DNA of 64,000 nt, from contig OZ024742.1 in the NCBI GenBank assembly GCA_964016885.1, forward strand, positions 319,982,001 to 320,046,000, in the 5' to 3' direction. This document shows, piece after piece, positions 9,001 to 43,425 of the stretch. The position numbers and the translations under genes were made by a program. The notes under the pieces are model-generated. The model was given only the letters and a program-made list of their open reading frames with translations. It was not told the origin of the DNA and did not search any database. Position 1 is the stretch's first letter. Each line of letters opens with the position of its first letter. The DNA comes from Eledone cirrhosa (Eukaryota).

Positions 9001-9210
9001 CATCATCACAACCACCAACTATACCTTTACACAACCATCATCATCATCACAACCACAAACTATACCTTTACACAACCATCATCATCATCACAACCACCAA
9101 CTATACCTTTATACAACCATCATCATCATCACAACCACCAACTATACCTTTACACAACCATCACCATCATCACAACCACCAACTATACCTTTATACAACC
9201 ATCATCACCA
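1..9210. repeat. Minisatellite array, ~41-bp unit (38/41/44/47 variants) AYACAACC(ATC/ACC)nACAACCACCAACTATACCTTT; plus strand almost G-free; runs off the window start
   Basis: Unit recurs at 1 and 42; length varies by ATC triplets; block duplication with 360-bp period (lines 1021 and 1381 identical). Confidence 0.97.
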
Positions 9211-9269
9211 TCGTCAATGCTACGGACCACCACCAACAACAACAACAACCAACAACAACAACAAAAACA

Positions 9270-14271: not shown

Positions 14272-14856
14272 CCACTGATCGCCGAGTCCGTTTGCCAGAG
14301 GACTGTGAGCGCCTGAGCACATTCGATGTGCCAGTCGCCCATTTTCCTCGGTCTTTGCTTGACTCAGGACTGCAGCTTGGTCAGCGAGACGAGTCGTGGG
14401 AATGCTCGCCTCACGAACCGGACCCACACCGGTTGTCTGGTGAGGAATACGTGGAGGTGTCGCAGCCTGAGCGCGTGTTTGCGCATCGTCAGCCGCGACT
14501 TCTCCAGCCCTCCGTTTGAAGGGTGTTGGCAGCAGGTGGATCTTCTCACCAAAGGAGCCCGTTTCTTCCAAAAGAATTGGAAGAGCGCGCACTATTTTGG
14601 TGAGCGTTTTGGCTGGACAAGGCACAACGGTCAAGTGGTAGTAGATGACGGACGCTATAAAAGTGTTCGCCACCTCCGTTCGACGTTTCAAGGATAGTTT
14701 GCACTCGGCCCACTTCTGGGTGAGCGCAAACACCTTGGCCGTCACCTCGTTCCAGTTCTTCTCCACCTGGAGGTCAGGACCAAACCAGACCCCGAGCAGC
14801 TTTACCGGTCCTTCCGTCCAGCGTCCGACGACGTCATCGGAAGGCATCGGTTTTCC
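14272..14856 (-). mobile_element. Tx1-clade LINE copy A: internal ORF2 fragment (post-RT region), truncated at both ends; same family as copy D
   Basis: Translates GRWTEGPVKLLGVWFGPDLQVEKNWNEVTAKVFALTQKWAECKLSLK, nearly identical to ORF2 of D; frameshifted. Confidence 0.92.
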
Positions 14857-14868
14857 ACACACATATAT

Positions 14869-14888
14869 AGATAGATAGATAGATAGAT
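14869..14888. repeat. (AGAT)n tract between copies A and B
   Basis: agatagatagatagatagat. Confidence 0.95.
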
Positions 14889-14890
14889 AT

Positions 14891-15947
14891 GTTTCTTTTA
14901 TTTGCCACTAGGGCATCAAAAGTGGGACAAGTACAAAGGGGGGAGTTTACACAAAAAGGCGTCCTCAATAAGGAGGAGGCAATAACAAAATATAAAAATA
15001 AAATAAGATATAACAAAAAATAAAATTTTTAACAAAATCCTCAATAGAGAGGAGGCGCCTTGGGGGGTCGCACACACCCCCGAAAAAAGTGTGCAACCCT
15101 TTTCCTCAGGAGCACAGAGAGGGGGTGCTCCCTCGTTCCTTCCTCTTTTCCACCTACAGGCTTATGTAGAGAGAAGGCCCATTCACACGGGCCATTCTCG
15201 CCACTTTCACCCACCTTTCATAAAAACGACTGGGGTGCAGCACCTCTCTCTCCATCCTGATCCTTCTTCCGAAATGATATCGGAAGAAACGGACCAGTTG
15301 TTGGCCAGAGAGAAAGGTGCCTGACCTCAGTCCTTTCAGACGCGTCCACCATACAACCTCTTTCGCCATGGCTATTACGCACAGAAACACCGCCTCTGCT
15401 TCATCTTTGAAGGGGGGAGGCGGCTTGATCATTACAATAGACTCGGTGGTCAACCGGATCGGTCCCACCCTTGACAGCAGTTGTTCGACATAGCCCCACA
15501 GATCGGCTACGCCCGAGCAGTGTACCAATGCGTGTGCAACGGTTTCCTCGTCGCACACGCATCTGGGACAGATCTTTTTGGCGGGGTCCCTACCCGGGCG
15601 CCCGTGTCTGTAGAGCCTTTCTCGAACGGGTAAAGCCCCTCGGTAGCACTGCCAGGCCAGGGACTTCTGGAAGTTGTCCATAGGTCCCGGGCTGAATGTC
15701 CTACCGAACAGGCCGGCCAGTTCGTCCTCCTCCATGTCTAGGGCTTCTCCGAGGGCGTCGTCGCACCTGCTGCGTACCAGCCCTCTATAGAATGTTGCGG
15801 TGGAGTCTCCACTGATAACCGGATCCGCCTGCCAGAGGGCGGTGAGCGCCTGGGCACACTCAGTGTGCCAGGCGCCCAGTTTTCTCGGTCTTTGCTTGAC
15901 CCAGGATTGCAGCTCGGTGAGTGAGACGAGTCTGGGAAAGGTTCGTC

Positions 15948-15948
<1 letters not shown>
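14891..15948 (-). mobile_element. Tx1-clade LINE copy B: 5'-truncated, ORF2 C-terminus plus 3' UTR
   Basis: ORF 15154-15735 with zf-RVT-type CPRCVCDEETVAHALVHC, ends ARVNGPSLYISL*; 3' UTR ends AATAAAAGAAAC then (TATC)n; 5' break abuts (TATC)n. Confidence 0.95.
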
Positions 15949-15979
<31 letters not shown>

Positions 15980-15988
15980 GAGATAGAT
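15949..15988. repeat. (AGAT)n tract between copies B and C
   Basis: About 10 units with one AGAG variant. Confidence 0.95.
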
Positions 15989-16202
15989 TTCTTTATTTAC
16001 CATAAAGGTATAAAAAGAAGGGACAAATACAAAGGGGGAGTTTACATAAAACCGAGTAAAAATGGTATAAAGTGAAAATAATCAAAAACAACCTCAAAAG
16101 GGAGGGGACGTGATGGGGGTTGCATACACCCCCGAAAAAGTGTGCAATCCTTTGCCCGGGGTGCACATGGAGAAAGTGCTCCCCTCTCCTTCACTTCTTT
16201 AC

Positions 16203-19200
16203 CTACAGGATGGTATACAGAGAAGGCCCATTTACACGAGCCATTCTCGCCACTATCACCCACCTTTCATAAAACTGCCTGTGGCCAAGCACCTCTCTCT
16301 CCATTCTTATCCTTCTTCCGAACTGATATCGGAAGAAGTAGACCAGACTATGGCCAGAGAGGAAGTTGCCTGACCTCAGACCTTTCAATCGTGTCCACCA
16401 AACAACCTCTTTCAACATGGCTATTACGCACAGAAAAACCGCCTTTGCTTCCTTTGTGAAGAGGGGAGGCGGCTTGATTGTTATCACGGACTCGGCGGTC
16501 AATCGAATCGGCGCCACCCGCGACAGCAGTCGTTCGGCGTAGCCCCACAGATCAGCCACGCCCGGACAGTGCACCAATGCGTGCGCAACGGTTTCTTCGT
16601 GACGCACGCATCTAGCGCAAATCTTTTTCTAGGGATCCCTGCCCGGGCGCCCGTGTCTGTAGAGCTTTTCTCGAACGGGTAGAGCCCCCCGGTAGCACTG
16701 CCAGGCCAGTGACTTCTGGAAGTTGTCCATTGGTCCCGGGCCGAAAGTCCTACCGAACAGGCTGGCCAGTTCGTCCTTTTCCATGTCCAGCGACTCTCCA
16801 AGAGTGTCATTGCCCCTGCTAGCCACCAGCCCTCTATAGAATGACGAGGTGGATTCTCCACCGATGGCCAGGTCCGCTTGCCAGAGAGCCCTGAGCGCCT
16901 GGGCACACTCAGTGTGCCAGTCGCCCAGTTTTCCGGATCTTTGCTTGACCCAGGACTGCAGATCGGTGAGCGAGACGAGTCTCGGAAAGGCTCGTCTCAC
17001 GATCGGAGCCCACACCGGTTGACCCGTGAGGAATACCTGTAGGTGCCGTAGCCTTAATGCGTGCCTACGCATCATCAACCACGGCATTCCCAGCCCTCCT
17101 TTCGAAGGTTGTTGGCAGCAGATGGATCTTCCAAAGAAATTGAAAGAGCATGCGTTCCATAGTGGTGAGTGCTTCCTTAGGGCAAGGCACGACAGTCAGG
17201 CGGTAGTAGGTGACGGACGCTATGTAAATGTTCGCCACCTCTGCCCGACCTTTCAGGGACAGCTTACACTTGGCCCATTTCTGGGTCAGTGCAAACACCT
17301 TGCTCGTAACCTCGCCCCAGTTCTTTTCCACCTGGAGGTCCGGTCCAAACCAGACCCCAAGCAACTTCACCGGGCCCTCCGTCCAGTGTCCGACGACACC
17401 GTCGGGAGGCATCGGTCTGCCTCTTCACGTTCCGAGTTGCAGCCCGATGGATTTTTCCCGGTTCAGTTTCGCTCTTGACAACCTTTCGTATTCCTCCAGT
17501 AAGGTACCGATCGCCTCGATCTCCGAGTCGGTCGATACCATTTCTGTTACGTCATCGGCGTAGGCCGACAGCGCTTTGCTCAATCCTGGTTCCAGGGGGA
17601 TGCCCTGCAACAACTCCAACTTCCTCAGTAAAGGCTCGAGAGTCAATACGTACAGAAGGGAGGAGAGAGGGCACCTGGATCGTGTGATTTCGAACGGCTT
17701 CGAAAGGTAACCGTTCACCTTGATCCTAGAACAGATGTGGTTGCTATGTAAGGCAGTGATCCAGCCTCTGAAAACAGGACCGAACCCAGCCGCCGCTAGC
17801 ACCGCATTCAGGTAACCATGGTCGACCCTATCGAACGCCTTAGACTGATCCAAGTTGATCAGGGCCCCACCGAAGCCGGGTTTGTTGCCAACCCTCTCTA
17901 TGATGTATCGCATGAGGTGGAGGTTGTCGAGAATGGACCTGGATGGGGTAGCACATGTCTGCGCATCTCCCACCCGGCTACCCACGACAAGCGCCAACCT
18001 CTTTGCTAACACCTTGGCCAAAATCTTTAACTCTGTGTTTAGCAGGGTTATGGGCCGAAAATTATTTATACTATCCCCCTTGTTCTCGTCCTTCCTCACC
18101 AGCGAGACTACGCCCTTGGCTACAGAACAAGGAATTCTCCCGTTCTGCTGCCAATTGCAGTAGACTGCTTCGAGGAGTTCGGAGAAGAAGACCGGCATTG
18201 CTAAATAAAGTTCGTAAGGTATACCATCGAGACCTGGAGATTTGCGTCTGCTGCATTGGCTCAGCGCATCCCCGATCTCATCAGCCGAGATTGGTCCCTC
18301 GCAGGACTCTGCCTCTTCGCTCGAGAGACGCGGCAGGCCGTCGAGGTATGGACCGAAATCCACGTCCCCGCCCGGACCTTCGCCTCCCCCGAACAATCGG
18401 GCAAAGTGCCTTTGAAAGGCCTCGCACATCTGCTTAGGCTCCCGGATCACACGTCCATCCTCGTCTTGCAAAGACCGGATGGTGGATCGATTTCCACTCT
18501 TAGCTTCTGTCACGCGGGCCCAGCCAACGGCTTTGGCCCCCTCATTACCTAGAGCACGTATTTTACTTCGAATGACGCAGCCTTCGTGCTTTGCATAGAA
18601 AAACTGGCTCAAGGCCGTTCTCGATGCCAGCACTCTGGCCACATCTTCGCTCTTGATTGCCTCTTCTAATTTACCTGTTAATTCTTTCTCGTTCCTATTC
18701 CTATCAGCAGCTAACATCTTGCTATAACTTATTGATTCTGTTCTAATCTCTCTTTTGAGAGATGCCCACCATCGGTTGTTGACGATTGCACCCGTCAACC
18801 TCTCCTTAACTAACCTGCTAATCCGGTCTCTGTAAGCCTCTTTTGCCGGTAAAGACAAATTAAGTTTCCAGTAACCGGGACCCTGTCTATGTGTTCTCTC
18901 GAGGTTGACTACGCAGGTCACTAATTTGTTATCTGTTTAGCCAACCGTGAGCATTTCTGGACAGCTTAATATGTCCCTATCCTTACTTCTAACTAAGAAT
19001 CTATCTAAGTACGATCTAGATCGACCACTGTGGTTCGTCAAAGTCCAGGTTGGCACAGTTGGAAGATCTAGTCGATATCTATCGACCAAGTTAAAACGGT
19101 CGAGTAACCCCTTGAGGCTGTTACACCCCCTCTATTAGGAGATGCTCCTGCATAGTCCCAACGTGCATCTAGGATGTCATTCCAGTCCCCCGCTAGAAGC

Positions 19201-19607
19201 AGGGAACGCGACGTTCCCAGAAAAGTCTCCAGACGCTGGAAGAAGTCGGGCCGTTCAGCTCCGAAAGGGGAGTAGACGGCGACCAGTCTCAAGGCCGCAC
19301 CTCCACTACTGCCAACGTCTAGCACCAACAAACGACCTTCCGGGTCCGAGTGAACAACCTGTACGGCGAGACCCAGGTGTTTTTCCAGCAGTACGACAAC
19401 CCCACCCCCACCTCCAGGTTGACAGAGAGATGCGTGCACCTCAAAGTCATCGAAGGTAGGGGCCAGCTGCCGCACGATGCTGATCCGAGTCTCACAGATA
19501 ACCATTACATTTATACCACGTGACCTGAGGTCATTTAGAAGCTTTGCTTGCTTCCAAGTTGAACCCAGGCTACGTGCATTCATACATTCTACTCTTAACA
19601 CATCCAT
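16203..19607 (-). pseudogene. Copy C ORF2 (APE endonuclease - reverse transcriptase - zinc finger), disrupted
   Basis: MDVLRVECMNARS start, GDWN, KSPGLDG, FRPITLLN, DQSKAFDRVDH and AYADD motifs, split over several ORF fragments. Confidence 0.93.
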
Positions 19608-21524
19608 GTGGGCGGCAAAGCCAAAGGAGAGTGTAGAGCCATACCTTTCTGCTTCCCGGGGTTCGGGTCGCACGACTTCCATGGGGTCGGGGATGTTGGG
19701 TGAAGGGGTGTCTTGTGGTGGTGTGGGGTCGTCAGTGTGTGGTGGGGTTTGGGTGTTTGGAGTTGTGTTGGGGGGAAGCTTTTTAGGAGGACGCGGTTTA
19801 TGGGTTTGACAGAGGGTGGTCCTACGTCCTCCTTAAAATCCTTTTTTAGTTTTTGGTAGAGGTTCATTGGGGCCATTATTAATTTTAATTGTGGGTTGTT
19901 TTCTGAAAAAACAAAGTTTACCCCTTCGGTTTGTACCGAAGGGTTATTGTTTATGAGTTCATTTAATTTATTATTGTTTCTGTTGATGTAAGTATAGTGT
20001 AATGTCTTTTTGTCGGATGGTGTGAGTGTTTCGAAGAGGAGAGGAGCAGGTTTGGTTTTGTTTGTTGCTGGAGGAGTGTTTTGTGTTTTGTTGGATTGTG
20101 TTGACATTTGGGTAGGGGCTGTTTGGCCTTGTGTGTTTTGCACATGTTTTCTTTTTTTCCTTTTAATCTGTCTGAAGGACTCCGTTTCTTCCTCCGAATT
20201 CGTTGGGTTATCTTCAGTGTTGGAGGGAAGAGGTATGTTTGCTGGTAGTGTTTCCGTGTTAGTTTTCTTTGTGGGGGAGATGGATGTCACTATGTTAGAC
20301 TGTGTTGTGTGTTGTGGCTGTGGTGGTTGTGTTGTTTTATTGAGTGAGGGGTTGGGTGGGACTGTGTTTTGTTTTGGGGTAATGTGTTGTGTCTGTTTGT
20401 GCTAGGGACGGGTTGGGTGGGACTGAGTTTTGTTGTTTGTTTATCTGTTGTGGTGGTGGTGGAGCTGGTGTTGGTAGCAGGGTTTTCTTCTTGTTGAGTT
20501 GGGGTCAAGCCGCCTTCAGGTGCCCTCTGCCTGCACAGATATGACAGGACGGCCTTCTCCCCTCCACGCTAATGTTTATATACCCGTGGCCCTCTAATAG
20601 GGTTCTGTCGGGTATTTGGGCAATGCGTTCAGGCTTCATTTGCACTACAAGTTCTATACCTGTTCCACTGAACGCATTGCCTGTGGTTTTCCCAATGGAA
20701 ATCACGTTGTCATTCGCTGGGTCGATCAAGCCAGCTATGAGCCAGCAGTAGTCCATATCTGGCATCATCGCATCCAGCCATATGCGCTGAGTTCTTTTAC
20801 CCATATAAGATGGATTAAAGGTAAAATTTGTCGAACGAATCGGCGACAAAGCATATTTTTTCGCCGCCGATTCGTTCTTCATAATAATGGCCAGGCTTCC
20901 ATAGAGCCTGTCTCTTCTTATGAAAGTGGCTTCATTAAATACTTCTCTAAGTACCGCTTTAATTTCTACTTGTGTTGGTTGTTGCGGCTTTTTTGAGATG
21001 TTGTTGATGGTGCGGAAAACGACCGTCCGACTTTCAATATCTTTGGTGAGTTCTTGGGGCATTTTTATCGACAAGGCTCCATTTTCCCCTTGAGTTATGA
21101 ATTGTTTGGCGTTTTTTATTCTTTGTGCCACATCTGAAATATTTTCAGGTATGTACGTTAAAGATTTTTTTGTTGTTTGTGCAAATGAGATGTTATTGGT
21201 GTTGACTTTGTCGTCTGTTTTGCTTTCTGTTATGATGTTGTTGTTTTCAAATGTTATTTTTGTGTTTATTGTTTCTTTGTTTGTGGTATTAATATTGTCA
21301 TGCAATTCTTTCAAATTTTTTTTGTTGTTGGAATCAATCTCCAGATTTGTGTTTTCGTTGTCATTTTTCTCCGCACATTCGTCTGTTTTTATTTTATTTT
21401 TTCTTTCCTTCTCTATGACGTTAGTTCGGAAGGAAGGGGGGACTAAAGCGTGCGAGCTTACAACTCTTACCGCTGCCCCCCCCCCCCCACCACCACCACT
21501 ATTTTTGTTAGCTTCATTTAACAT
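19608..21524 (-). pseudogene. Copy C ORF1 (gag-like, CCHC knuckle), disrupted
   Basis: CHICAGRGHLKAA* (last Cys codon is TGA); downstream PQLNKKKTLLPTP and YTYIN...KPINRVLLK match ORF1 of D and E. Confidence 0.9.
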
Positions 21525-21750
21525 TTCTCCCAGACGATTGAAATTTTATGCAACAAAATTTCTAAAAACAGGTTTTTCACCCTTGGGAGGGGCGAAAATG
21601 AGCTGACCCACCGCCTGACAGTTCAGACGGGGGGGTCAAGCTACACAATAGTATCAAAATTAATATTAAACTTACAAAATATCCGCAATAAATTGGAACA
21701 AAACTTCTGCGCGAAGTGAATTACGTCTACGCTATCGAACAGACGACAGC

Positions 21751-21757
21751 TAGATCA

Positions 21758-21792
<35 letters not shown>
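21751..21792. repeat. (GATA)n tract between copies C and D
   Basis: tagatcaatagatagata... Confidence 0.95.
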
Positions 21793-22031
21793 TATTTCTT
21801 TATTAGCCACAGGGGCACAAAAGAAGGGGACAAATACAAAGGGGGAAGTTTACATACAATAAAAACGTGTAAAATGTTATCACAGATGGAATTTAAAAGT
21901 TAGTCGATTTTCCCCAATAGAGGGAGACAGTTTATATGGGTAACACAGACCCCCGAAAAAAATGTGCAACCCTCATCTCCAGGAGTACGAAGAGCTTGTA
22001 CTCCTTTCCTCTCCTCCTCCTTTTCCTCAAC

Positions 22032-25000
22032 CTACAGGCTGATATAGAGAGAAGGCCCATTCACCCGGGCCATTCTCGCCACTTTCACCCACCTTTCATA
22101 AAACTTGCTGGGGTACAGCACCTCTCTCTCCATCCTGATTCTTCTTCCAAAGTGGTATTTGAAAAAAAGAATCAGTTGTTGGCCGGAGAGAAAGGTGTCT
22201 GACCTCAGCCCTTTCAACCTTGTCCACCATACAACCTCTTTCGCCATAGCTATCACACAAAGGAAAACCGCCTCTCCTTCGTTTTTGAAGGAGGGTGGCG
22301 GTTTGATCATGACAATGGACTCGGTGGTCAACTGGATTGGTCCCACCCGCGACAATAGTCGTTCCACATAGCCCCACAGGTCAGTGACGCCCGGGCAGTG
22401 TATGAATGCGTGCGCGACGGTTTCTTCGTCTCGCACGCACCTCGGACAGATCTTTTTTGCAGGGTCCCTGCCCGGGCGCCCATGTCTGTAGAGCTTGTCT
22501 CGAACTGGTAGAGCTCCTCGGTAGCACTGCCAGGCCAGGGACTTTGGGAAGTTGTCCATCGGTCCCGGGCGGAAGGTCCTACCGAACAGACTGGCCAGTT
22601 CATCTTCCTCCACGCCTAGAGTTTCACCGAGCGCGTCGTCGCACTTGCTGCGGACCAACCCTCTATAGAATGACGAAGTGGAGTCTCCACTGATCGCCGG
22701 GTCCGCCTGCCAGAGGGCTGTGAGCGCCTGAGCACATTCGATGTGCCAGTCGCCCATTTTCCTCGGTCTCTGCTTGACCCAGGACTGCAGCTCGGTCAGC
22801 GAGACGAGTCGTGGGAAGGCTCGCCTCACGAACGGGGCCCACACCGGTTGTCCGGTGAGGAATACGTAGAGATGCCGCAGCCTGAGCGCGTGTTTGCGCA
22901 TCGTCAACCACGGCATCCCCAGCCCTCCGTTAGAAGGGTGTTGGCAGCAGATGGATCTTCTTACCAAAGGAGCCCGCCTCTTCCAAAGGAATCGGAAGAG
23001 GGCGCGCTCCATTTTGGCGAGCGTTTTGGCTGGACAAGGCACGACGGTCAAGCGGTAGTAGATGGCGGACGCTATAAAAGTGTTCGCCACCTCCGCTCGA
23101 CCTTTCAAGGATAGTTTGCACTCGGCCCACTTCTGGGTGAGTGCAAACACCTTGGCCGTCACTTCGTTCCAGTTCTTCTCCACCTGGAGGTCCGGACCAA
23201 ACCAGACCCCGAGCAGCTTTACCGGTCCTTCCGTCCAGCGTCCGACGACGCCATCGGAAGGCATCGGTCTGCCTCTCCACGATCCGAGTTGCAAACCGAT
23301 GGACTTGTCCCGGTTCAGCTTCGCTCCTGTGAGACTTTCGTATTCCTTTAGTAAGGTGCCGACTTCCTCGATTTGCGAGGCGCTCGACACCATTACTGTC
23401 ACGTCGTCGGCGTAGGCCGACGCCGCTTTCCGCAGTCCCGGTTCCAGAGGGATGCCCTGCAATAGCTCCAGCTTCCGCAGTAGTGGCTCGAGAGTCAGTA
23501 CGTACAGAAGGGAGGAGAGAGGGCATCCCTGTCGAATGGATCGCGTAATATGGAACGGCTCCGAGAGGTAACCGTTCACCTTGACCCTTGAGCAGATGTT
23601 GCTGTTGTGCATTGCAGCAATCCAGCCCCTGAACACGGGTCCGAAGCCTGCCGCCTCGAGCACCGCATCCAGGTAACGATGGTCAACCCTATCGAAAGCC
23701 TTAGACTGATCCAAGTTGATCAGGGCCCCACCGAAGCCGGGTTTACACCCTACCCTCTCTATGATGTATCGCATGAGGTGGAGGTTGTCGTGTATGGACC
23801 TGGTCGGGATCGCGCATGTCTGCGCTTCTCCCACCAGGTTCTCGACGACAAGCGCCAGCCTCTTTGCCAACACCTTGGCCAAAATCTGTAACTCTGTGTT
23901 TAGCAGAGTTATGGGCCGGAAGTTGCCTATGTCATCCCCCTTATTCTCGTCCTTCCTGATTAGTGTGACCACGCCACCGGTTACAGAATTGGGAATTCTC
24001 CCGTTCTGTTGCCAGTTGCAGTAGACCGCTTCCAGGAGACCGGAGAATAAGTCCGGCATTGCTACGTAAAATTCGTAGGGTAGACCGTCGAGACCTGGAG
24101 ATTTGCGTTTGCCGCATTGGCTCAGCGCGTCCCCTATCTCAGTGGCTGAAATCGGCTTTTCGCAGAACTTCGCCTCGCTGTCCGAGAGTCGCGGTAGGCC
24201 GTCGAGGTATGGACCGAAATCCATAGCCTCTCCCGGCGCGCCGCTCCCCCCGAACAGCCGAGCAAAGTGCCGCTGAAAAGCCGCACACATCTGCTTCGGC
24301 TCACGTATCACGCGTCCGTTTTGGTCCTTCAAAGACCGAATCGTGGACTTGTTGCCACTTTTTTCCTCCGTCACTCGGGCCCAGCTAACAGCTTTGGCTC
24401 CCTCGTTTCCCAGAGCACGTATTTTGCTTCTGACAACGCAGCCCTCGTGCTTTGCGTCGAAGAACTGGTCCAAGGCCGTTCTCGTTGCTAGCACGCTGGC
24501 TACGTTGCCACTTCTAATAGCCTCTTCTACTTTATCTACCAGTTCCTTCTCGGTTCTATTTCTATCTAACGCTAATTCTTTACTAAAAACTATCGAGTCT
24601 AATCTAACTGCCCTCTTGAGAGAGTACCACCATCTGTTGTTGACAATGGCCCCTGTCAAGTGCTGTTTAACTAAAGTGCTAATCCGTCTACTGTAGGCTT
24701 TGCTTGTCGGTAACGACAAGTTCAGCTTCCAGTAGCCGGGTCCTTGTCTATGGGTTCTATCAAGGTTGGCCATGCAGGTCACTAGTTTGTGATCTGAATA
24801 GGCAACCATGAACATTTGTGGACAGCTTAACATGTCCCTATCCTTATTTCTAACTAGAACCCTATCTAGGTACGATCTAGATGTTCCGCTACGATTACTC
24901 CACGTCCACAGTGGCGCAGTCGGAAAATCTAGTCGATATCTATCGGCCAGGTCAAATCGGTCGATTAACTGTTTGAGGCTGTTACACCCCCCTTTATCGG

Positions 25001-25469
25001 GACATGCTCCCACATAGTCCCAACGTGCATCTAGGATTCCATTCCAGTCCCCCACTAAAAGCAAGGAGCGGGACGTTCCCAGAAAAGTCTCTAGACGTTT
25101 GAAGAAGTCTGGCCGCGGTGTCCCGGATGGGGCATATGCGGCCACCAGCCTGAACGCTCCACCTTCACTACCGTCAACGTCTAGGACCACCAGTCGACCC
25201 TCCGGGTCCAGATGTACCGTCTGTGTTACGAGGCCCAGGTGTTTCCGCAGCAAAACGGCAACTCCGCCCCCACCCCCCGGTTGACAGAGAGATGCGTAGA
25301 TCTCAAAGTCATCGAAGATGGGGGCCAGCTGTCGCTCGTCGTGGATCCTGGACTCGCAAATGGCTACCACATCCAAACTGTGCGACCTGAGGTCGTTTAA
25401 GAGTTTGCCCTGTTTCCAGGGCATCCCCAGGCCGCGTACGTTCACACATCCAACTCTTATATTGGCCAT
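22032..25469 (-). CDS. ORF2p: APE-type endonuclease + reverse transcriptase + C-terminal zinc finger (L1/Tx1 type)
   Basis: NVRGL, ESR, YAP, GDWN, SYLDR, SDH (EN); GYWKLN linker; KSPGLDG, RPITLLN, KAFDRVDH, RQGCPLS, YADD, LLGV (RT); GGLGMP; CPRC..EETVAHAFIHC. Confidence 0.97.
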   Translation of the reverse strand: MANIRVGCVNVRGLGMPWKQGKLLNDLRSHSLDVVAICESRIHDERQLAPIFDDFEIYASLCQPGGGGGVAVLLRKHLGLVTQTVHLDPEGRLVVLDVDGSEGGAFRLVAAYAPSGTPRPDFFKRLETFLGTSRSLLLVGDWNGILDARWDYVGACPDKGGCNSLKQLIDRFDLADRYRLDFPTAPLWTWSNRSGTSRSYLDRVLVRNKDRDMLSCPQMFMVAYSDHKLVTCMANLDRTHRQGPGYWKLNLSLPTSKAYSRRISTLVKQHLTGAIVNNRWWYSLKRAVRLDSIVFSKELALDRNRTEKELVDKVEEAIRSGNVASVLATRTALDQFFDAKHEGCVVRSKIRALGNEGAKAVSWARVTEEKSGNKSTIRSLKDQNGRVIREPKQMCAAFQRHFARLFGGSGAPGEAMDFGPYLDGLPRLSDSEAKFCEKPISATEIGDALSQCGKRKSPGLDGLPYEFYVAMPDLFSGLLEAVYCNWQQNGRIPNSVTGGVVTLIRKDENKGDDIGNFRPITLLNTELQILAKVLAKRLALVVENLVGEAQTCAIPTRSIHDNLHLMRYIIERVGCKPGFGGALINLDQSKAFDRVDHRYLDAVLEAAGFGPVFRGWIAAMHNSNICSRVKVNGYLSEPFHITRSIRQGCPLSSLLYVLTLEPLLRKLELLQGIPLEPGLRKAASAYADDVTVMVSSASQIEEVGTLLKEYESLTGAKLNRDKSIGLQLGSWRGRPMPSDGVVGRWTEGPVKLLGVWFGPDLQVEKNWNEVTAKVFALTQKWAECKLSLKGRAEVANTFIASAIYYRLTVVPCPAKTLAKMERALFRFLWKRRAPLVRRSICCQHPSNGGLGMPWLTMRKHALRLRHLYVFLTGQPVWAPFVRRAFPRLVSLTELQSWVKQRPRKMGDWHIECAQALTALWQADPAISGDSTSSFYRGLVRSKCDDALGETLGVEEDELASLFGRTFRPGPMDNFPKSLAWQCYRGALPVRDKLYRHGRPGRDPAKKICPRCVRDEETVAHAFIHCPGVTDLWGYVERLLSRVGPIQLTTESIVMIKPPPSFKNEGEAVFLCVIAMAKEVVWWTRLKGLRSDTFLSGQQLILFFKYHFGRRIRMEREVLYPSKFYERWVKVARMARVNGPSLYISL

Positions 25470-25502
25470 GTTGGTGCTGAAAAGTTAAAAGAGGAAAAGA
25501 GA

Positions 25503-27419
25503 TCACTCACCCTTCGCCTCCTGGGGACCAGGCCGCACGATTTCCATGGGGGTGTTGGAGGGGTTGTCTGGATGGGTGGTGGTTTCCGGCGGGGTGGGGA
25601 CGCAGATGTTTGGTGGGGTGGGGTCTGGTGGAATGGGGGTGTCTGGGGTGGGGAGGCATTTGAGAAGGACGCGGTTGAGTGGTTTCACGCAGGAATTCCC
25701 CACATCCTTCTCAAATGTTTCTTTTAGGGACCTATAAGTTTGTATAGGGACCCTAATCAGTTTTAGGTTCATTTTTTTGCTATTTTTTATAGAGTGGGCG
25801 AAAGTTTTCCCTTCGGTGAAAACCGAAGGGTCGTTCGTAATGGTCTCCATTAGTGTTTTGTTTTCAGTGTTTATGTAAGTGTAAGTGTAATTTTCTTGTG
25901 TTGTGTTTGTTTTTGTCTGTAGTTCTTGTGTGTGCTTTCGTTTTGTTGTAGGTATTTTGTTTTCAGGAGGTGGGGGTTTTGTTTGTGATATTTTTGTTGT
26001 TTGTGTTGGTGGTTGTATGTTTGTGGTAGTGTTTGCTGGTTTTTTGCTTTTGTGATGTCTTTTCTTTCTTTTCGAGCGATGGGGTTCTCCCTCGTCTTCA
26101 CTGGGTGATGGCGAGATAGCCTCATCTGTTGTATCGTCTGTGTGATTGGGGAGGGGTATGTCTTGGGGAGCTGTTGTGTCTGTATGTGATTTTGCAGTGG
26201 TTTTAGGTGGAGTGGGGTTGGGTGGGACTGTGTTTGTTGTGGTTATTTTTGTGTGTTGGTGTTGTTGTTGTAGTGGTGGTGTTGGTGGTTGTGTTGTTTT
26301 GATGGGTGTTGGCAGAAGAGCCTTTTTTTGGTTCATTAGTTTAGGACAGGAAGCCCTCAGGTGACCCCTGCTAAAGCAATGGTAACATGAAGGCCGCCTA
26401 CCCTCAACCGAAAGGTTTATGTAGGTAAGTCCGTCCAGGAGTACACGCTGTGGGATCATAGCTATTCGCTCTGGGCTCATTTGCACCAGAACTTCAATGC
26501 TAGTCCCATTGAATACATCTCTGGGGGACTTGCCTACTGACAGTATTCTGTCTTCATCAAAATTGATGAAGCCGCACAGTATCCACCATATGTTCACCTT
26601 TGGTGTGACACTTGTGATTCTGATCTTTTGTGTCCTTTTTCCCATGTATGTAGGGAAAAAGGTGTACAGGTTGGATACAATTGGCGACACAGAGTAATTT
26701 TGGGCCGTCAATTGATCCTTCATCAGTACCGAAATACTCCCAAAAAGTTTGCTTCTTTGAATGAATGCAATATCATTCATTGAATCTTTGAAAACCAGTT
26801 CAATATCTTTCTGTGACAATTGGACTGGTTTTCGGGTAGAATTGGAAACTGTCCTAAAAACTATCGTTTTGAGAGCAGTTTCCTTGCGAATTTCTACCGG
26901 AGAATTGATGCTGAAAGCACCATTTTTTTCGAAGGTGACATATCTCTTAGCGTCCTTTAAAAGGTGTTCAGCATTTGTTATGTCGAGATATATCAATTGT
27001 TCTTTCTTTTGAACTTTCTCCGCAAAGGAGATTTTTGGTTTCTTTGTGGAATCCGTATTGGTGGTGTTGTCATTATTGTTGTTATTCTTGTTGTTATTCT
27101 TGTTGTCACCGATGTTGGTATCATCCGTATTTTCCTTGGTGTTGTTGTTGTCTTTGATGCTGGTGTTATTGGCGTTGTCTTTATTTTTTTCTTTGTTGTT
27201 GTTATCATTGTTGCTTTTATCATCATTATTGGTTTTGCTGTTATTTTTGTTGTCATTGAGCTGTTTGGTGTCATTTGTGTTGTTTGGATGTGAATTCGTT
27301 TTTTTATTTTCATTTTGTCTTTCCATCTCTATAGTATCTAGTGAAGAAGACGTTGTTGACTGCGAGCTTTGTAGACTTACCGCCTCTCCACCACCATTAT
27401 CGTTGGACGCAGCGTTCAT
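25503..27419 (-). CDS. ORF1p: gag-like nucleic-acid-binding protein with Asn-rich N-terminus, CX2CX4HX4C knuckle, Pro/Thr-rich linker, basic NLS-like patch and conserved C-terminal domain
   Basis: EGRRPSCYHCFSRGHLRASC; KRKKRHHK; homologous to ORF1 of C and E. Confidence 0.93.
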   Translation of the reverse strand: MNAASNDNGGGEAVSLQSSQSTTSSSLDTIEMERQNENKKTNSHPNNTNDTKQLNDNKNNSKTNNDDKSNNDNNNKEKNKDNANNTSIKDNNNTKENTDDTNIGDNKNNNKNNNNNDNTTNTDSTKKPKISFAEKVQKKEQLIYLDITNAEHLLKDAKRYVTFEKNGAFSINSPVEIRKETALKTIVFRTVSNSTRKPVQLSQKDIELVFKDSMNDIAFIQRSKLFGSISVLMKDQLTAQNYSVSPIVSNLYTFFPTYMGKRTQKIRITSVTPKVNIWWILCGFINFDEDRILSVGKSPRDVFNGTSIEVLVQMSPERIAMIPQRVLLDGLTYINLSVEGRRPSCYHCFSRGHLRASCPKLMNQKKALLPTPIKTTQPPTPPLQQQHQHTKITTTNTVPPNPTPPKTTAKSHTDTTAPQDIPLPNHTDDTTDEAISPSPSEDEGEPHRSKRKKRHHKSKKPANTTTNIQPPTQTTKISQTKPPPPENKIPTTKRKHTQELQTKTNTTQENYTYTYINTENKTLMETITNDPSVFTEGKTFAHSIKNSKKMNLKLIRVPIQTYRSLKETFEKDVGNSCVKPLNRVLLKCLPTPDTPIPPDPTPPNICVPTPPETTTHPDNPSNTPMEIVRPGPQEAKGE

Positions 27420-27636
27420 AACGTAATCAAAATTTTACAATATTTTTTCCAAGATTCGATGGAGAAAAATTTTTTAAATGGATATTCCGCCCCTGAAGGG
27501 GCGAAAATGAGTTGACCCACCACCTGAAGGTCCAGACGGGTGGTCAAGTTACACAATGATATAAAATTGAACTAAAAACTCACGTTTTTTCCTTACATAA
27601 ATTAACGGAAACTTCTCCGCGAAGTGACACACGACT

Positions 27637-27647
27637 GATAGAGAGAG

Positions 27648-27716
<69 letters not shown>
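27637..27716. repeat. (GATA)n tract (with short (GA)n) between copies D and E
   Basis: gatagagagagagatagata... Confidence 0.96.
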
Positions 27717-27717
<1 letters not shown>

Positions 27718-27948
27718 ATTTCTATTTATTTGCCACGAGGGCACAAAAGGAGGGGACATTTACACAGTGGGGGAGTTTACATAAATCGAGTAAAGAAAAA
27801 AGGAATAACAATAATAATATAACAATAAAAAGTCCTCAAAAGGGAGGGGGCGTGTTGGGGATTGCACATACCCCCGAAAAGTGTGCAACTCTTTTCGCGG
27901 GGGAAGCCCAGAGAGGAGGCGCTCCCCCTTTCCTCTTCACTTCTTCAC

Positions 27949-30900
27949 CTACAGAACAATGTAGAGAGAAGGCCCATTTACACGGGCCATTCTCGCTTCT
28001 TTCACCCACCTTTCATAAAACTGTCTGGGACCAAGCACTTCTCTCTCCATCCTGATCCTTCTTCCGAAGTGGTATCGGAAGAAGTAAACCAGGTGATGGC
28101 CGGAGAGAAAGTCACCCGACCTCAGACCTTTCAGGCGCGTCCACCACACAACCTCTTTCATCATGGCTATTACGCACAGAAAGACCGCCTCTGCTTCATT
28201 TCTGAAAGGAGGAGGCGGCTTGATGTTCACCACAGACTCGGCGGTTAATCGAACCGGCGCCACACGCGACAGCAGTCGTTCGACGTAGCCCCACAGATCG
28301 GCAACGCCCGGGCAGTGTACCAGTGCATGCGCAACGGTTTCCTCGTCGCGCACGCATCTGGGACAGATCTTTTTCACGGGATCCCTGCCCGGGCGCCCGT
28401 GTCTGTAGAGCTTTTCTCGAACGGGCAGAGCCCCCCGGTAACACTGCCAGGCTAGGGACCTCTGGAAGTTGTCCATGGGTCCCGGGCCGAAAGTTCTACC
28501 GAACAGGCTGGCCAGTTCGTCCTCCTCCATGCCTAGCGACTCTCCAAGGGTGTCGTCGCCCCTGCTAGCCACCAACCCTCTATAGAATGTCGAGGTGGAT
28601 TCTCCACTGACAGTCGGGTCCGCTTGCCAGATAGCCGTGAGCGCCTGGGCACACTCGGTGTGCCAGTTGCCCAGTTTTCTCGGTCTTTGCTTCACCCAGG
28701 ATTGCAGTTCGGTGAGCGAGACGAGCTGTGGGAAGGCTCGCCTCACAAACGGGGCCCACACCGGCTGACCGTTGAGGAATACCTGTAGATGCCGTAGCCT
28801 CAATGCGTGCCTACGCATCAACAGCCACGGCATACCCAGCCCTCCTTTCGAAGGGTGCTGGCAGCAGATGGATCTCCTCACCATGGGAGGCCGCTTCTTC
28901 CAGAGGAACTGGAAGAGCATGCGTTCCATGATGGTGAGCTTTTCCTTGGGGCAAGGCACGACGGTCAGGCGGTAGTAGATGACGGACGCTATGTAAGCGT
29001 TCGTCACCTCCGCCCGACCTTTCAGTGATAGTTTGCACTTGGCCCACTTCTGGGTCAGCGCAAACACCCTGCTCGTCACCTCGCCCCAATTCTTCTCCAC
29101 CTGGAGGTCCGGTCCGAACCAGACCCCGAGTAGCTTCACCGGGCCCTCCGTCTAACGGCATCGGTTTGCCCCTCCACATTCCGAGTTGCAAACCGACTGA
29201 CTTGTCCTGGTTCAGCTTAGCCCCCGTCAGCCTTTCGTATTCCTCCAGTAGGGTGGCGATCGCCCCGATTTCCGAGGCGTCCACCACCATTACTGTTACG
29301 TCGTCGGCATAGGCCGAGACCGCTTTGTGCAATCCCGGTTCCAGGGGTATGCCCCGCAGCAACTCCAACTTCTGCAGCAGTGGCTCGAGAGTCAATACGT
29401 ACAGAAGGGAGGAGAGGGGGCACCCCTGTCTGATGGATCGGGTGATTTGAAACGGCTCCGAGAGGTAGCCGTTTACTTTAATCCTAGAGTAGATGTTGCC
29501 ACTGTGCATGGCAGAAATCCAGCCCCTGAAAACGGGTCCGAAGCCCGCCGCCGCTAGCACCGCATCCAGGTAACCATGGTCAACCCTATCGAACGCCTTA
29601 GATTGATCCAAGTTGATCAGGGCCCCACCAAAGCCGGGTTCGTAGCCAACCCTCTCTATGATGTATCGCATGAGGTGGAGGTTGTCGTGAATGGACCTGG
29701 ACGGGATAGCGCATGTCTGCGCGTCTCCCACCAAACCACCCACCACAAGCACCAACCTCTTCGCCAACACCTTGGCCAAAATCTGTAACTCTGCATTCAG
29801 CAGAGTTATGGGCCTAAAGTTACTTAAGTCGTCCCCCTTGCTCTCGTCCTTCCTCACTAGCGTGACCACGCCCTTGGTCACAGAACAGGGAATTCTCCCG
29901 TTCTGTTGCCAGTTGCAATAGACAGCCTCGAGGAGTTCGGAGAACAAGACCGGCATAGCTAAATAAAGTTCGTATGGTAGACCATCGAGACCCGGGGATT
30001 TGCGTCTGCTGCATTGGCTGAGCGCTTCCCCGATTTCAGTGGCTGTGATTGGCCTTTCGCAGCACTCCGCTTCGCCGCTCGAAAGACGCGGTAGACCGTC
30101 GAGGTATAGACCGAAGTCCACATCCCCGTCCGGCCCCCCGCCACCTCCGAACAGTCGAGCAAAGTGCCTTTGAAAGGTCTCGCACATTCGCTCAGGTTCA
30201 AGGATCACCCGTCCATCCTGGTCTCGCAAAGACCGAATGGTGGATTTAATTCCACTCTTGGCTTCTGTCACGCGGGCCCAGCTAACAGCTTTGATCCCCT
30301 CGTTTCCTAAAGCACGTATTTTACTTCGGACAACGCAGCCTTCGTGCTTCGCGTCAAAGAACTGGCTCAACGCCGTTCTCGTCGCTAACACTCTGGCTAC
30401 GTCTCCGCTCCTAATCGCCTCTTCTAGTTTATCTGTTAACTCCCTTTCCTTCCTATTTCTATTCGCCGCTAGTTCCTTACTGTAACCTATCGAACTTACT
30501 CTAATCTCTCTCTTTAGAGATACCCACCACCTACTGTTGACGATCGCTCCCGTCAACCGCATCTTAACTAAGCTACTAATCCGGTTTCTGTAATCTTTCT
30601 TTGTCGGTAAGGACAAGTTCATCTTCCAGTAACCGGGACCCTGTCTATGCGTTCTATCAAGGTTGACCACGCAGGTCACTAATTTGTGATCTGAATAGCC
30701 AACCATGATCAGTTCTGGACAACTAAATACTATCCTTACTCCTAACCAAAAACCTATCTAGGTACGATCTAGATTGTCCATTGCGGTTTGCCCAGGTCCA
30801 GGTTGGCGCAGTTGGACAATCTAGTCGAAATCTATCGACCAGGTCGAATCGATCGAGTAACCCCTTGAGGCTGCTACACCCCCCTCTATCGGGACATGCC

Positions 30901-31367
30901 CCTGCATAGTCCCAACGCGCATCTAGGATTCCATTCCAGTCCCCCACTAAAAGCAGGGAACGCGACGTTCCTAGAAAAGTCTCCAGACGCTGGAAGAAGT
31001 CGGCTCTTTCCGCCCCGAAGGGAGCATAAAGACCGACCAGTCTGAAAGCCCCGCCTTCACCGCCTCCGACGTCCAGCACCAGTAATCGACCCCCCGGGTC
31101 CGAGTGAACAATCTGTACGTCGAGAGTCAGACGTTTATCCAGCAGTACGGCAACTCCCCCCCCCCCCCCGCCTCCGGGTTGACAGAGAGATGCGTGCATC
31201 TCAAAGTCATCGAAGGCGGGCGCCAGCTGTCTCACGCTGCTGATCCGACTCTCGCAAACAACCATCACATCTATACTTTGTGACCTGAGGTCACTTAGAA
31301 GCTTTGCTTGCTTCCAAGCTGAGCCCAGGCCACGCGCGTTCAAACAGCCAACTCTCAATTGATCTAT
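27949..31367 (-). pseudogene. Copy E ORF2 (EN-RT-zf); start apparently ATG>ATA, stop at 30723-30725, frameshifting deletion at ~29150
   Basis: ATA GAT CAA TTG AGA GTT GGC aligns with ATG GCC AAT ATA AGA GTT GGA of D; RQGCPLS and AYADD present; VVGRWT segment lost at a GACGG repeat. Confidence 0.93.
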
Positions 31368-33191
31368 TTTGGTGTTGAAAGTGAAGAAAGAAAAGCACTT
31401 ACCTCTCCGGGTTGCGTAATTTCCATGGCATCAGGTGTGTTGGGTGGAGGGATGTTTTGTGGTGGTGTGGGGGTACACGTGTGTGGTGGGGTTGGGGTAT
31501 TTGGAGTTGTGTCAGGGAGAGGGGCGGTTATGGGGAAATCTTTCAAGGGGACGCGATTCAACGGTTTTAAACAGGGGGGGCTCACGTCCCGTCTAAATTG
31601 TTCTTTTAAGGAACGATAAAGCTCCAGAGGGACCTTTATCATTTTTAAATGGGTGAAGTTCTCTGTTGAGATAAAGTTTGGCCCTTCGGTCTGCACCATA
31701 GGGTTATTGTTTATTAATTTAACCAGTTTTTTGTTTTCTTTATTTATATATGTGTATTGCAACGTCTTTTTTTGTGATGCTGTCAATGTTTCGGAGAGGG
31801 GAGGCGCAGATTTATTTTTGTTTGTTGAGGGTGGGGTGTTTTTGATTGGAGTTGGTGTTTGTGTGTGGGTTATTTGTGGTGTGCTGGGTGTGTGTTTTCT
31901 TTTTTTTCTTTTAACTTGTCTGAAGGCTTCTCCTCCTTCTTCTTCAGAAGTTGGGGGAAACTCTTCAGCGCTAGGTGGGAGGGACGTGTTGTGTGGTTGT
32001 TTTTTTTTTGCGGGAGGGGTAGATTTGTTACTGTTTTTTTTATTGTTTGTTTGGAATGGGTTTTGTGGTGGTGGTGGTAATGTTTGTGTCGTGCTTGTGG
32101 TTGGTGATGGTGGTGTTTGTGTTGTGGTTGGTGGTGGTGATTTTTGTGTCGTGCTTGTGTTTGGTGCTGGTGGTGGTAATGTTTGTGTTGTGTTTGTGGT
32201 TGGTGGTGTCTGTATTTTGTTTGCTGTGTGTGGTATTAGTGTATTTTTGGAGGTGGGTGGTGTTGGTGTACTGTTTGTGGTGGGTGTGGGAAATAGTCCT
32301 TTTTGGGGGATACGTTTCGGGCAGTTAGCCTTAACGTGTCCCCTTTCCATGCATAAATAGCATGCTGGTCTTCTCCCCTCTACAATTATGTCTATTGGGG
32401 TAAGGTCATCCAGCCAGATGCGATCCGGGATTTGTGCTATTCTTTCGGGCCTCATTTGGACTAGTATGTCGAGGCCCATTCCCAGAAACGCATCTCCAGT
32501 TGCCTTCCCCATTGACAGCATTGTGTCTTCGCCCATATCAATGAAGCCAGCAATAGCCCACCAGAAGTCCATTGTGGGCAGCATTGTTTTTACTTTTACT
32601 CTCTGTGTTCTTCTACCCATGTAGGAGGGATAGAAGCTATATGTTGTCGATGAGAGTGGGCTTAGGGAAAGCTTCTCCGCCGTTTCCCTGTCTCTTGTTA
32701 GGACCGAAATGCTGCCATAGAGTCGGTCCTTTCGTATGAAGAGAATATTCTTCATATAGTCTTTTAGGACTAACTCTATTTCCATTTGGCTGGGCTGTGC
32801 TGGCTTTCTTGTCTGGTTCAGTATAGTTCTGTAGAGAACTGTGTTTTCTGCTCTGGCTTTCTTGAATTCTGGGGGGGGAGTTAATGGAAAACATTCCGTT
32901 CTCCCCCAAAACAATGTGTTTCTTTGCTTCGGCCAGTTTTTCTCTGGCGGCAGTTAGGTCAATTGGTGTGTATGTAATGGATTGTTTTGTTTTCTGGGCG
33001 AAAGTTGCCCTGTTGTTATTTGTATTATTTTCTGTTTGTTTGTTTTCTGTTTGTTCATTTTCCTTAACATTTGTTTTTTCCTTTTCTTTGTTTGTTTCAT
33101 TGTCTAATTTTGTTGTAATTATTTTTTGTTCTTCAGACTTGGGGGGCGTGGCAGAGCTAATGGCAGACATGTCTGCCATCTTTTCCGCCAT
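31364..33191 (-). pseudogene. Copy E ORF1, single frameshift in homopolymer at ~32871-32878 (could be a sequencing error)
   Basis: MAEKMADMS...ENGMFSINSP / PEFKKARAENTVLYRT...CYLCMERGHVKANC. Confidence 0.9.
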
Positions 33192-33392
33192 GCTGCCAAG
33201 AAAGAAATTTTTCGGCAAAAATAGATATTTATTTTACCCCCTAAAAAGGGGGTAAATGCAAAAATGTTTCCCTAAAAAACAGGGGTTAGTGTTCCAAATG
33301 TGTTGCACTGAAAAATTTATCCGGTACTTACAATAGTAAGGGTAAATCCCGATGGAATAGCGGAGCCGATGTGAAGCGTGTCTTACTCTATC

Positions 33393-33493
<101 letters not shown>

Positions 33494-33591
33494 CAGTAGC
33501 GCTAAACATACCCTGATTCATAGGAAAACATATACACTATATTTGTCCCGTATAGCTCAGTAGCTGTTACACCGGGGTTAGACAGAGCTGC

Positions 33592-34265
33592 ATGGATGCG
33601 CCCGACCTTTTCGACTTTGTTATCGATTATCTGAAGTACGCAGACGACACTACAGCATTCACCAACTCGATCAGTCAGTTCAGGGACGCACTGACCATAT
33701 ACCGGGAGGAATCAGCACAGCTTGGCCTTCAGGCGAACTGGGCAAAGACAAAGCTGATACATGTCGGCAATGGCCCGGATTCTCCTCCGCTTCATATTGG
33801 CCCTGACGCCGTGAAGTTTGTTAGCTCCTTCATTTACCTGGGCTCGAATGTCACCAACATCGGCGACCTGACCCCGGAGATCAACCGCAGATGTGGCGTG
33901 GCTGCCGGGATCATGCACTCCCTATGGAAGTCTCTTCGGTGCCACTACTCAATCTCCCAGAAGACGAAGCTTCATATTTACAACGCATCGATCCTATCCA
34001 TTCTCCTCTACGGAGCAGAAACGTGGCCCCTCATAAAGATCCTGGCAAAGAGGATTGACAGTTTCAATAGCAGAGCCATAAGGACCATCAAAAACATCAG
34101 ATAGCACCACCACGTTACCAACAAAGTGTTGCGTGCGCGCACCCACCAGCCCACAGCTACCCACCTCATAGCTATCCACCGCATGCACTGGGTACACACA
34201 TATCCTCCGCTTACCACCAGACCATCCTACCAGGGCCTTATTCTCGTTCGACGCAACGGCTGCAG
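33592..34265 (+). mobile_element. RTE-clade LINE reverse transcriptase fragment
   Basis: YADD, LGLQANWAKTK, FIYLGS, EINRR, TKLHIYNASILSILLYGAETW. Confidence 0.88.
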
Positions 34266-42789: not shown

Positions 42790-43425
42790 CACACAAGCAC
42801 AGAGACACACACACACGCACACACACACAGATACATACACACAAGTACGGACACGCTCACACACACACAGATACATACAGATACGGACACGCTCACTCAC
42901 ATACACATACACACAGATAGATACATACAGATACGGACACGCTCACACACACACACACAGATACATACATACAGATACGGACACGCTCACACACACAGAT
43001 ATATACATACAGATACATACATACAGGTACGGACACGCTCACACACACACACACAGATACATACATACAGATACATACATACAGATACGGACACGCTCAC
43101 ACACACACACACACACACAGATACATACATACAGATACGGACACGCTCACACACACACACAGATACATACATACAGATACGGACACGCTCACACACACAC
43201 ACACACACACAGATACATACATACAGATACGGACACGCTCACACACACACACAGATACATACATACAGATACGGACACGCTCACACACACACACAGATAC
43301 ATACATACAGATACGGACACGCTCACACCCACACAGATATATACATACAGATACATACATACAGGTACGGACACGCTCACACACACACACACACACACAG
43401 ATACATACATACAGATACGGACACG

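Follow-up and report, generated by a model that had tools for sequence, protein, structure and literature searches.

Candidate splice sites flanking ORF2 in a LINE array of Eledone cirrhosa and a possible ORF1-only mRNA

The stretch analyzed here, 64,000 nucleotides of Eledone cirrhosa contig OZ024742.1 (positions 319,982,001 to 320,046,000; hereafter the window), contains an array of long interspersed nuclear elements (LINEs) with a pair of open reading frames, termed ORF1 and ORF2. We propose that RNA of these elements may be spliced so that the whole of ORF2 is skipped, yielding an ORF1-only mRNA that keeps the 3' untranslated region (UTR) and its poly(A) signal, with unspliced RNA providing the ORF2 protein (ORF2p) and the template. 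We consider this reading moderately probable on sequence grounds. Every full-length copy has a 5' splice-site motif at the end of ORF1, the ORF2 stop codon supplies the AG of an acceptor-like motif, and joining the two leads to a prompt stop although the donors lie in three different phases. From this arrangement we infer that both sites are used by the spliceosome, each as the partner of the other.

Five pieces of one LINE group follow each other head-to-tail on the minus strand in the order E, D, C, B and fragment A (Table 1). They are separated by (CTAT)n tracts and are ~77-82% identical in ORF2, with fragment A 93% identical to D. The sole intact copy is D.

Splice sites were scored with a position-weight matrix whose frequencies are approximate and not host-specific. 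The candidate donors are AAG/GTATGG in C, AGG/GTGAGT in D and GAG/GTAAGT in E (a slash marks the exon boundary), lying 37, 41 and 35 nt, respectively, upstream of the ORF2 start. These motifs and their positions are as the original prediction had them; its description of the surroundings as diverged holds mainly for C, the spacers of D and E being clearly homologous. Among the GT sites of its copy, the donor ranks first of 277 in D (score 9.9), first of 264 in E (11.9) and fifth of 291 in C (8.4). Sites scoring at least 8.4 number 11 in the 17,290 nt of C, D and E together. Because only ~0.03-0.05 such sites would be expected in the spacer, and simulated neutral retention of a strong ancestral donor in all three copies is 4-19%, chance is an unlikely explanation for the donor at the ORF1 end. 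The window alone counts as one evolutionary event. Further donor-like sites occur near the other end of ORF1: GCG/GTAAGT in D (27375-27383, score 9.7) and GCG/GTAAGA in C (21465-21473), both on the minus strand and close to the ORF1 start. E has only a weaker one, in the 5' UTR (33331).

At the other end of the proposed intron, ORF2 finishes with a pyrimidine run and CTGTAG/GT in B, C, D and E, as had been claimed. When all AGs of a copy are ranked with a 10-nt pyrimidine tract, the terminal AG is 39th of 367 in D, 17th of 372 in C, 11th of 375 in E and 25th of 71 in B. When the comparison is limited to the 134 AGs common to C, D and E 3' of the donor, it ranks first with a 16-, 20- or 26-nt pyrimidine window. 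The purine-rich, enhancer-like stretch described after the acceptor is present, and part of it is paired in 3'-UTR hairpins. Conservation of synonymous sites, which had been proposed as a check, is not raised: 7 of 12 four-fold degenerate sites are identical over the last 30 ORF2 codons, against 223 of 403 identical in C, D and E overall, so the end of ORF2 adds no support from this side.

The strongest local sign is the phase-matched prompt stop. Donor phases are 2 in C, 1 in D and 0 in E, and reading across the joins ends after 0, 0 and 3 codons, confirming this part of the original prediction; the joined ORF1 tails end in EAER, EAKG and GEVKK, respectively. Only one of the 134 shared AGs, the terminal one, gives a stop within three codons in C, D and E, each in its own donor phase. 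In D the distances to a stop after the acceptor are 43, 0 and 32 codons for phases 0, 1 and 2, so that the stop is prompt only in phase 1; C and E have prompt stops in phases 0 and 2. The background rate of prompt stops is 0.12-0.14 per position. In C, the ORF1 tail reads in frame into ORF2 with no stop between, and the join would provide the stop that unspliced ORF1 lacks. Since C is frameshifted elsewhere, the missing stop may also reflect decay. In D, the ORF1 stop TGA starts 5 nt inside the proposed intron. The D spacer (25476-25500, minus strand) ends in the top-scoring acceptor of this copy, 7 nt before the ORF2 ATG, and this acceptor is absent from C. Two other introns using the spacer were considered and rejected. 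An ORF2-only mRNA in which the 5' donor 27380 is joined to AG 25476 of the spacer would be out of the ORF2 frame, with the AG absent from C, and a short spacer intron fusing ORF1 to ORF2 would be 34 nt and out of frame in D, with C having no AG.

Independent support comes from relatives. A protein search returned one relative at 70% identity and 36 at 37-44%, and tandem arrays of this LINE group were found in evidently host-derived contigs of one bacterial bin, G001, from which 37 stretches were read. Two lineages occur there, a/c and b; in ORF2 either one shares 40-41% identity with D, and the two share 47-48% between them. In a tree of 30 reverse transcriptase (RT) rows, D groups with its nearest protein relative P0001 (100/99) inside an 11-row group (85/74) that includes lineages a/c and b and lies apart from plant L1; the rows include no reference Tx1 such as Xenopus Tx1L. 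A word-indexed search found no homologues of D ORF1, a HMMER search with the ORF1 core gave 126 matches, and no relatives were found among viral contigs.

All 64 units of lineage a/c carry AAG/GTAAGT directly 3' of the ORF1 stop, with 13 nt left to the ORF2 ATG; this site ranks first among ~390 GT sites in six of the seven units scored and second in the remaining one. A stop codon does not account for this donor, whose TAA is not in the ORF1 frame. Being close relatives of each other, the a/c units amount to a single independent case. When ORF2 and the 3' UTR are scored together, the top acceptor of all seven scored units (six of a/c and one of b) is a 3'-UTR site, with scores of 12.1-17.9, and the a/c tract varies yet stays mostly pyrimidine ahead of an invariant TAG. 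Candidate acceptor AGs follow the ORF2 stop at ~250-265 nt or ~50 nt in a/c and at +183 in b. These scored sets leave out loci without a pattern match, four in the donor comparison and two in the acceptor comparison. A strong second donor stands just behind the ORF2 stop, at +14 nt in subfamily a and +40 nt in b, and inside or overlapping the stop in subfamily c. The a/c lineage also has AAA/GTAAGT near its 5' end, and in subfamily a (L087:7485-7522 and matching sites) an acceptor lies ~37 nt downstream of the second donor, where other subfamilies have TAG with a weaker tract. The G001 contigs (L081-L120, L124, L129, L130-L164) are eukaryotic-looking head-to-tail LINE arrays with a period of 6.4-6.8 kb, some of which end in 5'-truncated copies with a short flank repeated between units, as in repeated insertion at the same site.

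Distant L1/Tx1-like elements served as controls (mostly 24-32% identity; loci without a long complete ORF were dropped from 80, leaving 34, 47 and 29 in the respective tests). A donor scoring at least 8.4 was found within 80 nt before ORF2 in 2/34 and around the ORF2 stop in 2/47, an acceptor scoring at least 10 near the ORF2 stop in 1/29, and 4 of 35 closed ORFs ended in TAG. Because distant elements seldom have either site, the layout is a trait of this group and not of LINEs at large.

Six public sequencing runs match D, none of them recorded as RNA. Logan contigs of four (X1, X4, X5 and X6) were aligned to D 21800-27600, and the predicted 22031-25511 joint is not among the 15 listed of 314 joints (lowest listed depth 27.7). 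One X4 contig spans the donor region unspliced (25295-25537) and one X5 contig spans the acceptor unspliced (21849-22095), as is expected of DNA or of full-length RNA. A joint between 21846 and 22030 in X4 and X5 was rejected as an intron: its ends are AG..CA, and it stems from a related family with a 3' UTR that departs from that of D immediately behind TAG GT. X1, X4 and X5 contain a variant in which a single base is added directly ahead of the D donor; the addition shifts the phase, keeps the motif as GAG/GTGAGT and brings the ORF1 stop inside it, which fits selection on the donor and also a motif shaped by the stop codon. The further suggestion that spliced RNA retrotransposes to give ORF1-only elements is unsupported: the three ORF1-bearing copies of the window all continue to ORF2, as do all 64 ORF1 ends in the G001 arrays, and no ORF2-less joint is among those listed for D.

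The pyrimidine run has a second possible reason to exist. Its CCTTCTC pairs with an upstream GAGAA-GGCCC in a hairpin kept in all four copies (z of -4.1, -2.7, -4.1 and -4.9), with a z that is the third lowest of 113 windows in D and also in E; compensatory changes are not seen among the four copies. Stem-loops at the 3' end are common in stringent LINEs, including some of the L1 clade (PMC3472496). The hairpin, which would lie within the proposed intron, could weaken the acceptor or mark unspliced RNA for copying. Other structures lie in the UTRs. At the start of the 3' UTR (D 21970-22010, with matching sites in B, C and E) there is a stem-loop whose arms differ between copies yet pair. Further common 3'-UTR motifs are TTGCACA, TTTTCGGGGGT and a block that precedes AATAAA and has a similar counterpart there in the G001 lineages. 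The 5' UTRs of D (27470-27550) and C (~21590-21645) carry matching inverted repeats TTGACC...GGTCA on the minus strand, with an additional CGCCCC stem in D; judged by eye, they resemble conserved hairpins.

Several observations weigh against ORF2-skipping splicing. Besides the unlisted junction and the unspliced contigs, the terminal AG falls to sixth of 134 with a 10-nt tract, below a shared AG at 25054 that is 456 nt from the donor, and the 16-26-nt windows that place it first were tried after the 10-nt result was known. The tract itself is paired in the hairpin, D and B carry another AG 7 nt 5' of the stop AG, a branch-point consensus is not clear by eye, and in B the first stop comes late in every phase (15, 36 and 78 codons). 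Coding sequence can carry donor-like sites, as shown by an AAG/GTGGGT kept in all three lineages. Among the relatives, the ORF1 end of lineage b lacks a donor (score 2.2) and the strong CTG/GTAAGT of this lineage lies 216 nt inside ORF2, so that conservation across families extends to the a/c donor and 3'-UTR acceptor and to the b acceptor, and not to the place of the b donor. The 3' UTRs of the relatives are T-rich, which inflates their acceptor scores. The second a/c donor is unspliced in 61 of 61 genomic ORF2 ends, where ordinary splicing combined with retrotransposition in cis predicts otherwise. Finally, the control elements belong to other hosts, their base composition is different, and near-duplicates occur among them.

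One possibility is that the donor is a selected U1-binding site that is not joined to the ORF2 stop, and either acts without splicing or splices to a nearer acceptor (AG 25054, or in a/c an AG 256 nt into ORF2). The case for the donor is indeed better than that for the acceptor, shared acceptors closer to the donor outscore the terminal AG under the 10-nt tract, the a/c donor behind the ORF2 stop is never spliced in its genomic copies, and a U1 site of Arabidopsis EVD represses premature termination (PMC5580714). We nevertheless find this explanation unlikely: phase-matched stops occur only at the terminal AG, a join to 25054 would be in frame in D and not in C or E, and there is no AATAAA in ORF2 of C, D and E for U1 to shield. 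Poly(A) signals of these copies are found at the 3' end or, upstream of the donor, within ORF1, and the ORF2 of E has two ATTAAA.

Slightly less credible again is that both motifs are by-products, with stop codons filling the consensus (TGA or TAA in GTRAG, TAG as the AG), the pyrimidine run serving as a hairpin arm for the reverse transcriptase, shared ancestry accounting for the conservation, and ORF2 being translated by termination-reinitiation as in L1 or SART1. The hairpin in all four copies, the commonness of such stem-loops in stringent LINEs, the unlisted junction and the stop inside the donor motif in the X1/X4/X5 variant and in subfamily c speak for it, as does D, where ORF1 and ORF2 share one frame and the spacer has two in-frame stops, like human L1 (PMC5860796). 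In D, E and lineage a/c, however, ORF1 is not read in the frame of the TGA or TAA within the donor, and the stop therefore fails to explain the donor there. The a/c and b acceptors are UTR sites outside coding sequence and lack comparable folding over them, the controls seldom carry either site, and of 134 shared AGs only one has the phase-matched stop. It is also conceivable, and in our view highly improbable, that the acceptor is real and its partner is the AAG/GTGGGT of Table 1, 61 nt 5' of it, so that splicing would shorten the ORF2 C-terminus and take out the hairpin, with the ORF1-end donor as an optional second partner. This site reaches a score of 9.4 in copies B to E and likewise in lineages a/c and b, and ~60 nt is a common intron length in invertebrates. 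It falls, however, in conserved RWV codons, P0001 ends with the unspliced C-terminus, and the corresponding 22031-22093 joint is not among the 15 listed of 314.

The elements themselves are L1/Tx1-type non-LTR LINEs inserted head-to-tail in (CTAT)n microsatellites, in a window of microsatellite-rich eukaryotic DNA that is, by its sequence, most likely animal. D ORF2 matches PF03372 (E 5e-13), PF00078 (E 6e-27) and PF13966 (E 4.5e-6). The zf-CCHC match of D ORF1 (PF00098, E 0.078) is below the cut-off, with the knuckle visible by eye; related ORF1s match at E 2.8e-4 and 1.5e-3, and the D ORF1 core resembles the ORF1 of relatives at E 5e-11 to 1e-7. E has ATA instead of ATG at its ORF2 start. 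All four 3' ends have AATAAA followed by (CTAT)n, and self-comparison of the window shows no terminal repeats.

Table 1. Coordinates of the LINE array and of the proposed splice sites in the window
Feature	Position	Strand	Description
Copy D	21793..27636	minus	Full-length, ORF1 and ORF2 intact, bounded by (CTAT)n
D ORF1	25503..27419	minus	638 aa, candidate CCHC knuckle CYHC..GH....C, same frame as ORF2
D ORF2	22032..25469	minus	1,145 aa, APE endonuclease, reverse transcriptase and zf-RVT
D 3' UTR	21793..22031	minus	AATAAA at 21804
Proposed D intron (predicted)	22032..25510	minus	3,479 nt, spacer and whole ORF2
D candidate donor	25505..25513	minus	AGG/GTGAGT, first intron base 25510, phase 1
D candidate acceptor	22030..22055	minus	Pyrimidine run and CTGTAG/GT, AG being the last two bases of the ORF2 stop codon; exon begins at 22031
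Conserved hairpin	22049..22077	minus	End of ORF2, within the proposed intron; 3' arm is the pyrimidine run
Second conserved donor-like site	22087..22095	minus	AAG/GTGGGT, first intron base 22092, in (E/K)RWV codons
Copy C	15989..21757	minus	Full-length, frameshifted; donor 19644 (phase 2), first exon base 16202, proposed intron 3,442 nt
Copy E	27717..33393	minus	Full-length, frameshifted; donor 31402 (phase 0), first exon base 27948, proposed intron 3,454 nt
Copy B	14863..15947	minus	5'-truncated; CTGTAG/GT, first exon base 15153
Fragment A	14272..14851	minus	Internal ORF2 piece
(CTAT)n/(GATA)n tract	27637..27716		Between E and D, likely insertion target

Tracts similar to that between E and D lie at 14867-14886, 15948-15988, 21758-21792 and 33394-33493. 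The last of these, upstream of E, is preceded by a piece of another reverse transcriptase and not by a 3' end of this LINE group, and the microsatellite is therefore probably the insertion target; target-site duplications are unreadable within the (CTAT)n tracts. Rfam gave no gathering-score match in the window or in L082, L087 and L116, and only a weak repeated miRNA match in L159 (E 0.1), so a small-RNA gene is not indicated as the target. The other reverse transcriptase piece (33556-34104, plus strand) has a YADD motif and begins just past (CTAT)25. At the opposite end, two long C/A-rich satellites adjoin the array within positions 1-13896 (a 41-bp unit x224 and a 51-bp unit x90), and fragment A grades into (TAC)n-like repeats beside them. 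A 33-bp minisatellite of 74 copies without G on the plus strand (49321-51741) and a degenerate AC-rich array (42798-44278) are unrelated to the splice finding.

The closest known parallel is Drosophila copia, which makes a Gag-only mRNA by splicing out a ~3-kb intron that covers all of pol (Yoshioka et al. 1990, as cited in PMC5580714). In both cases one large intron of similar size removes, or here would remove, the enzyme ORF and leaves a structural-protein message with its 3' end, and unspliced copy C reads from ORF1 into ORF2 without a break in frame, as in copia. The copia layout, with GT at the end of the structural ORF, AG at the end of the enzyme ORF and a stop soon after the join, is found here as sequence motifs. 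Unlike copia, these are non-LTR elements expected to use target-primed reverse transcription, the ORFs of D are separate and the acceptor is the ORF2 stop codon itself; their APE, RT and zf-RVT domains and lack of terminal repeats do not place them in Ty1/copia. Arabidopsis EVD and barley BARE1 obtain a shGAG RNA through a short intron and early termination (PMC5580714). They share with the present elements a strong donor where the structural gene ends, a new stop just past the junction and a possible second role for U1, and they differ in that their intron is short and their RNA ends early, whereas here ORF2 has no AATAAA and the best partner is 3.45 kb away.

Among non-LTR elements, the Tx1 families Kibi, Koshi and a crocodilian group target (TC)n, (TTC)n and (TTCC)n/(TTTC)n microsatellites, respectively (PMC4494074). 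Like them, the elements of the window combine an APE-RT-zf ORF2, an ORF1 with a probable zinc knuckle and microsatellite insertion. The comparison is by description, the target here is (CTAT)n, which sets them apart from Kibi and Koshi, and the part of PMC4494074 available does not mention splicing. Human L1 is also a LINE whose sense RNA has splice sites, predicted ones in the present case. Splicing of L1, including that behind SpIREs, occurs within the 5' UTR or into ORF1, with reduced activity and a dead end as its outcome (PMC5860796), whereas the sites described here flank ORF2 and look selected, with no spliced genomic copies among those examined. The predicted spliced product would have the 5' UTR, ORF1 and 3' tail of HAL1 (half-L1), known as non-autonomous ORF1-only derivatives of L1 (PMC5753468). 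HAL1 elements are genomic families, whereas here no ORF1-only copy was found in the window, the G001 arrays or the 15 listed of 314 joints. The known route to ORF2 expression is translational, through termination-reinitiation in SART1 and L1 (PMC5972666). Our literature search found no report of ORF2-skipping splicing in a non-LTR element, most subscription journals, Repbase Reports and supplements being outside its coverage.

LINEs need far more ORF1 protein (ORF1p) than ORF2p. Under ORF2-skipping splicing, the transcript would have two fates. Left unspliced, it would encode ORF1 and ORF2 and serve as template for new copies. Spliced from the strong 5' site at the ORF1 end to the AG of the ORF2 stop, it would lose ~3.45 kb and become a short polyadenylated mRNA for ORF1p alone, with its stop 0-3 codons past the junction. 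Such a message could supply the ORF1p excess required by LINE particles, as spliced RNA supplies the Gag excess in copia. Pairing of the pyrimidine run in the hairpin may keep the acceptor weak enough for unspliced RNA to survive. An exon junction close to a stop spares an RNA from junction-dependent decay, and because the donors at ORF ends all lie within ~40 nt of a stop, the spliced RNA would be expected to escape it. Spliced RNA would seldom or never be copied back, as it encodes no ORF2p and has lost the hairpin. LINEs show cis preference (PMC5860796), and this, perhaps together with loss of the hairpin, may account for the absence of ORF1-only copies. The original prediction of an ORF1-only mRNA with the 3' UTR thus gains from the relatives and from the phase-matched stops, and the listed joints do not show its junction.

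A wider reading, which we hold only tentatively and think a little less than evenly balanced, extends a retrovirus-like division of labor to the whole of this animal LINE group, down to 40% identity in ORF2. Strong donors at ORF ends would share one acceptor at or behind the ORF2 stop, the spliced RNA would be an uncopied message for ORF1p, and only RNA that keeps the intron would be reverse-transcribed. In some families, as in copy C, the ORF1 stop would arise only by splicing, and unspliced RNA would give an ORF1-ORF2 polyprotein, as in copia.

The prediction is exact to the base. If true, a LINE group that splices out ORF2 would represent convergence on the strategy of copia and retroviruses, and would have a direct route to ORF1-only, HAL1-like derivatives. 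How an element mobilized through RNA keeps an intron would then become a question. If the wider reading is also true, these LINEs would carry a conserved intron that serves the element, and would do so in a class regarded as having no benefit from splicing.

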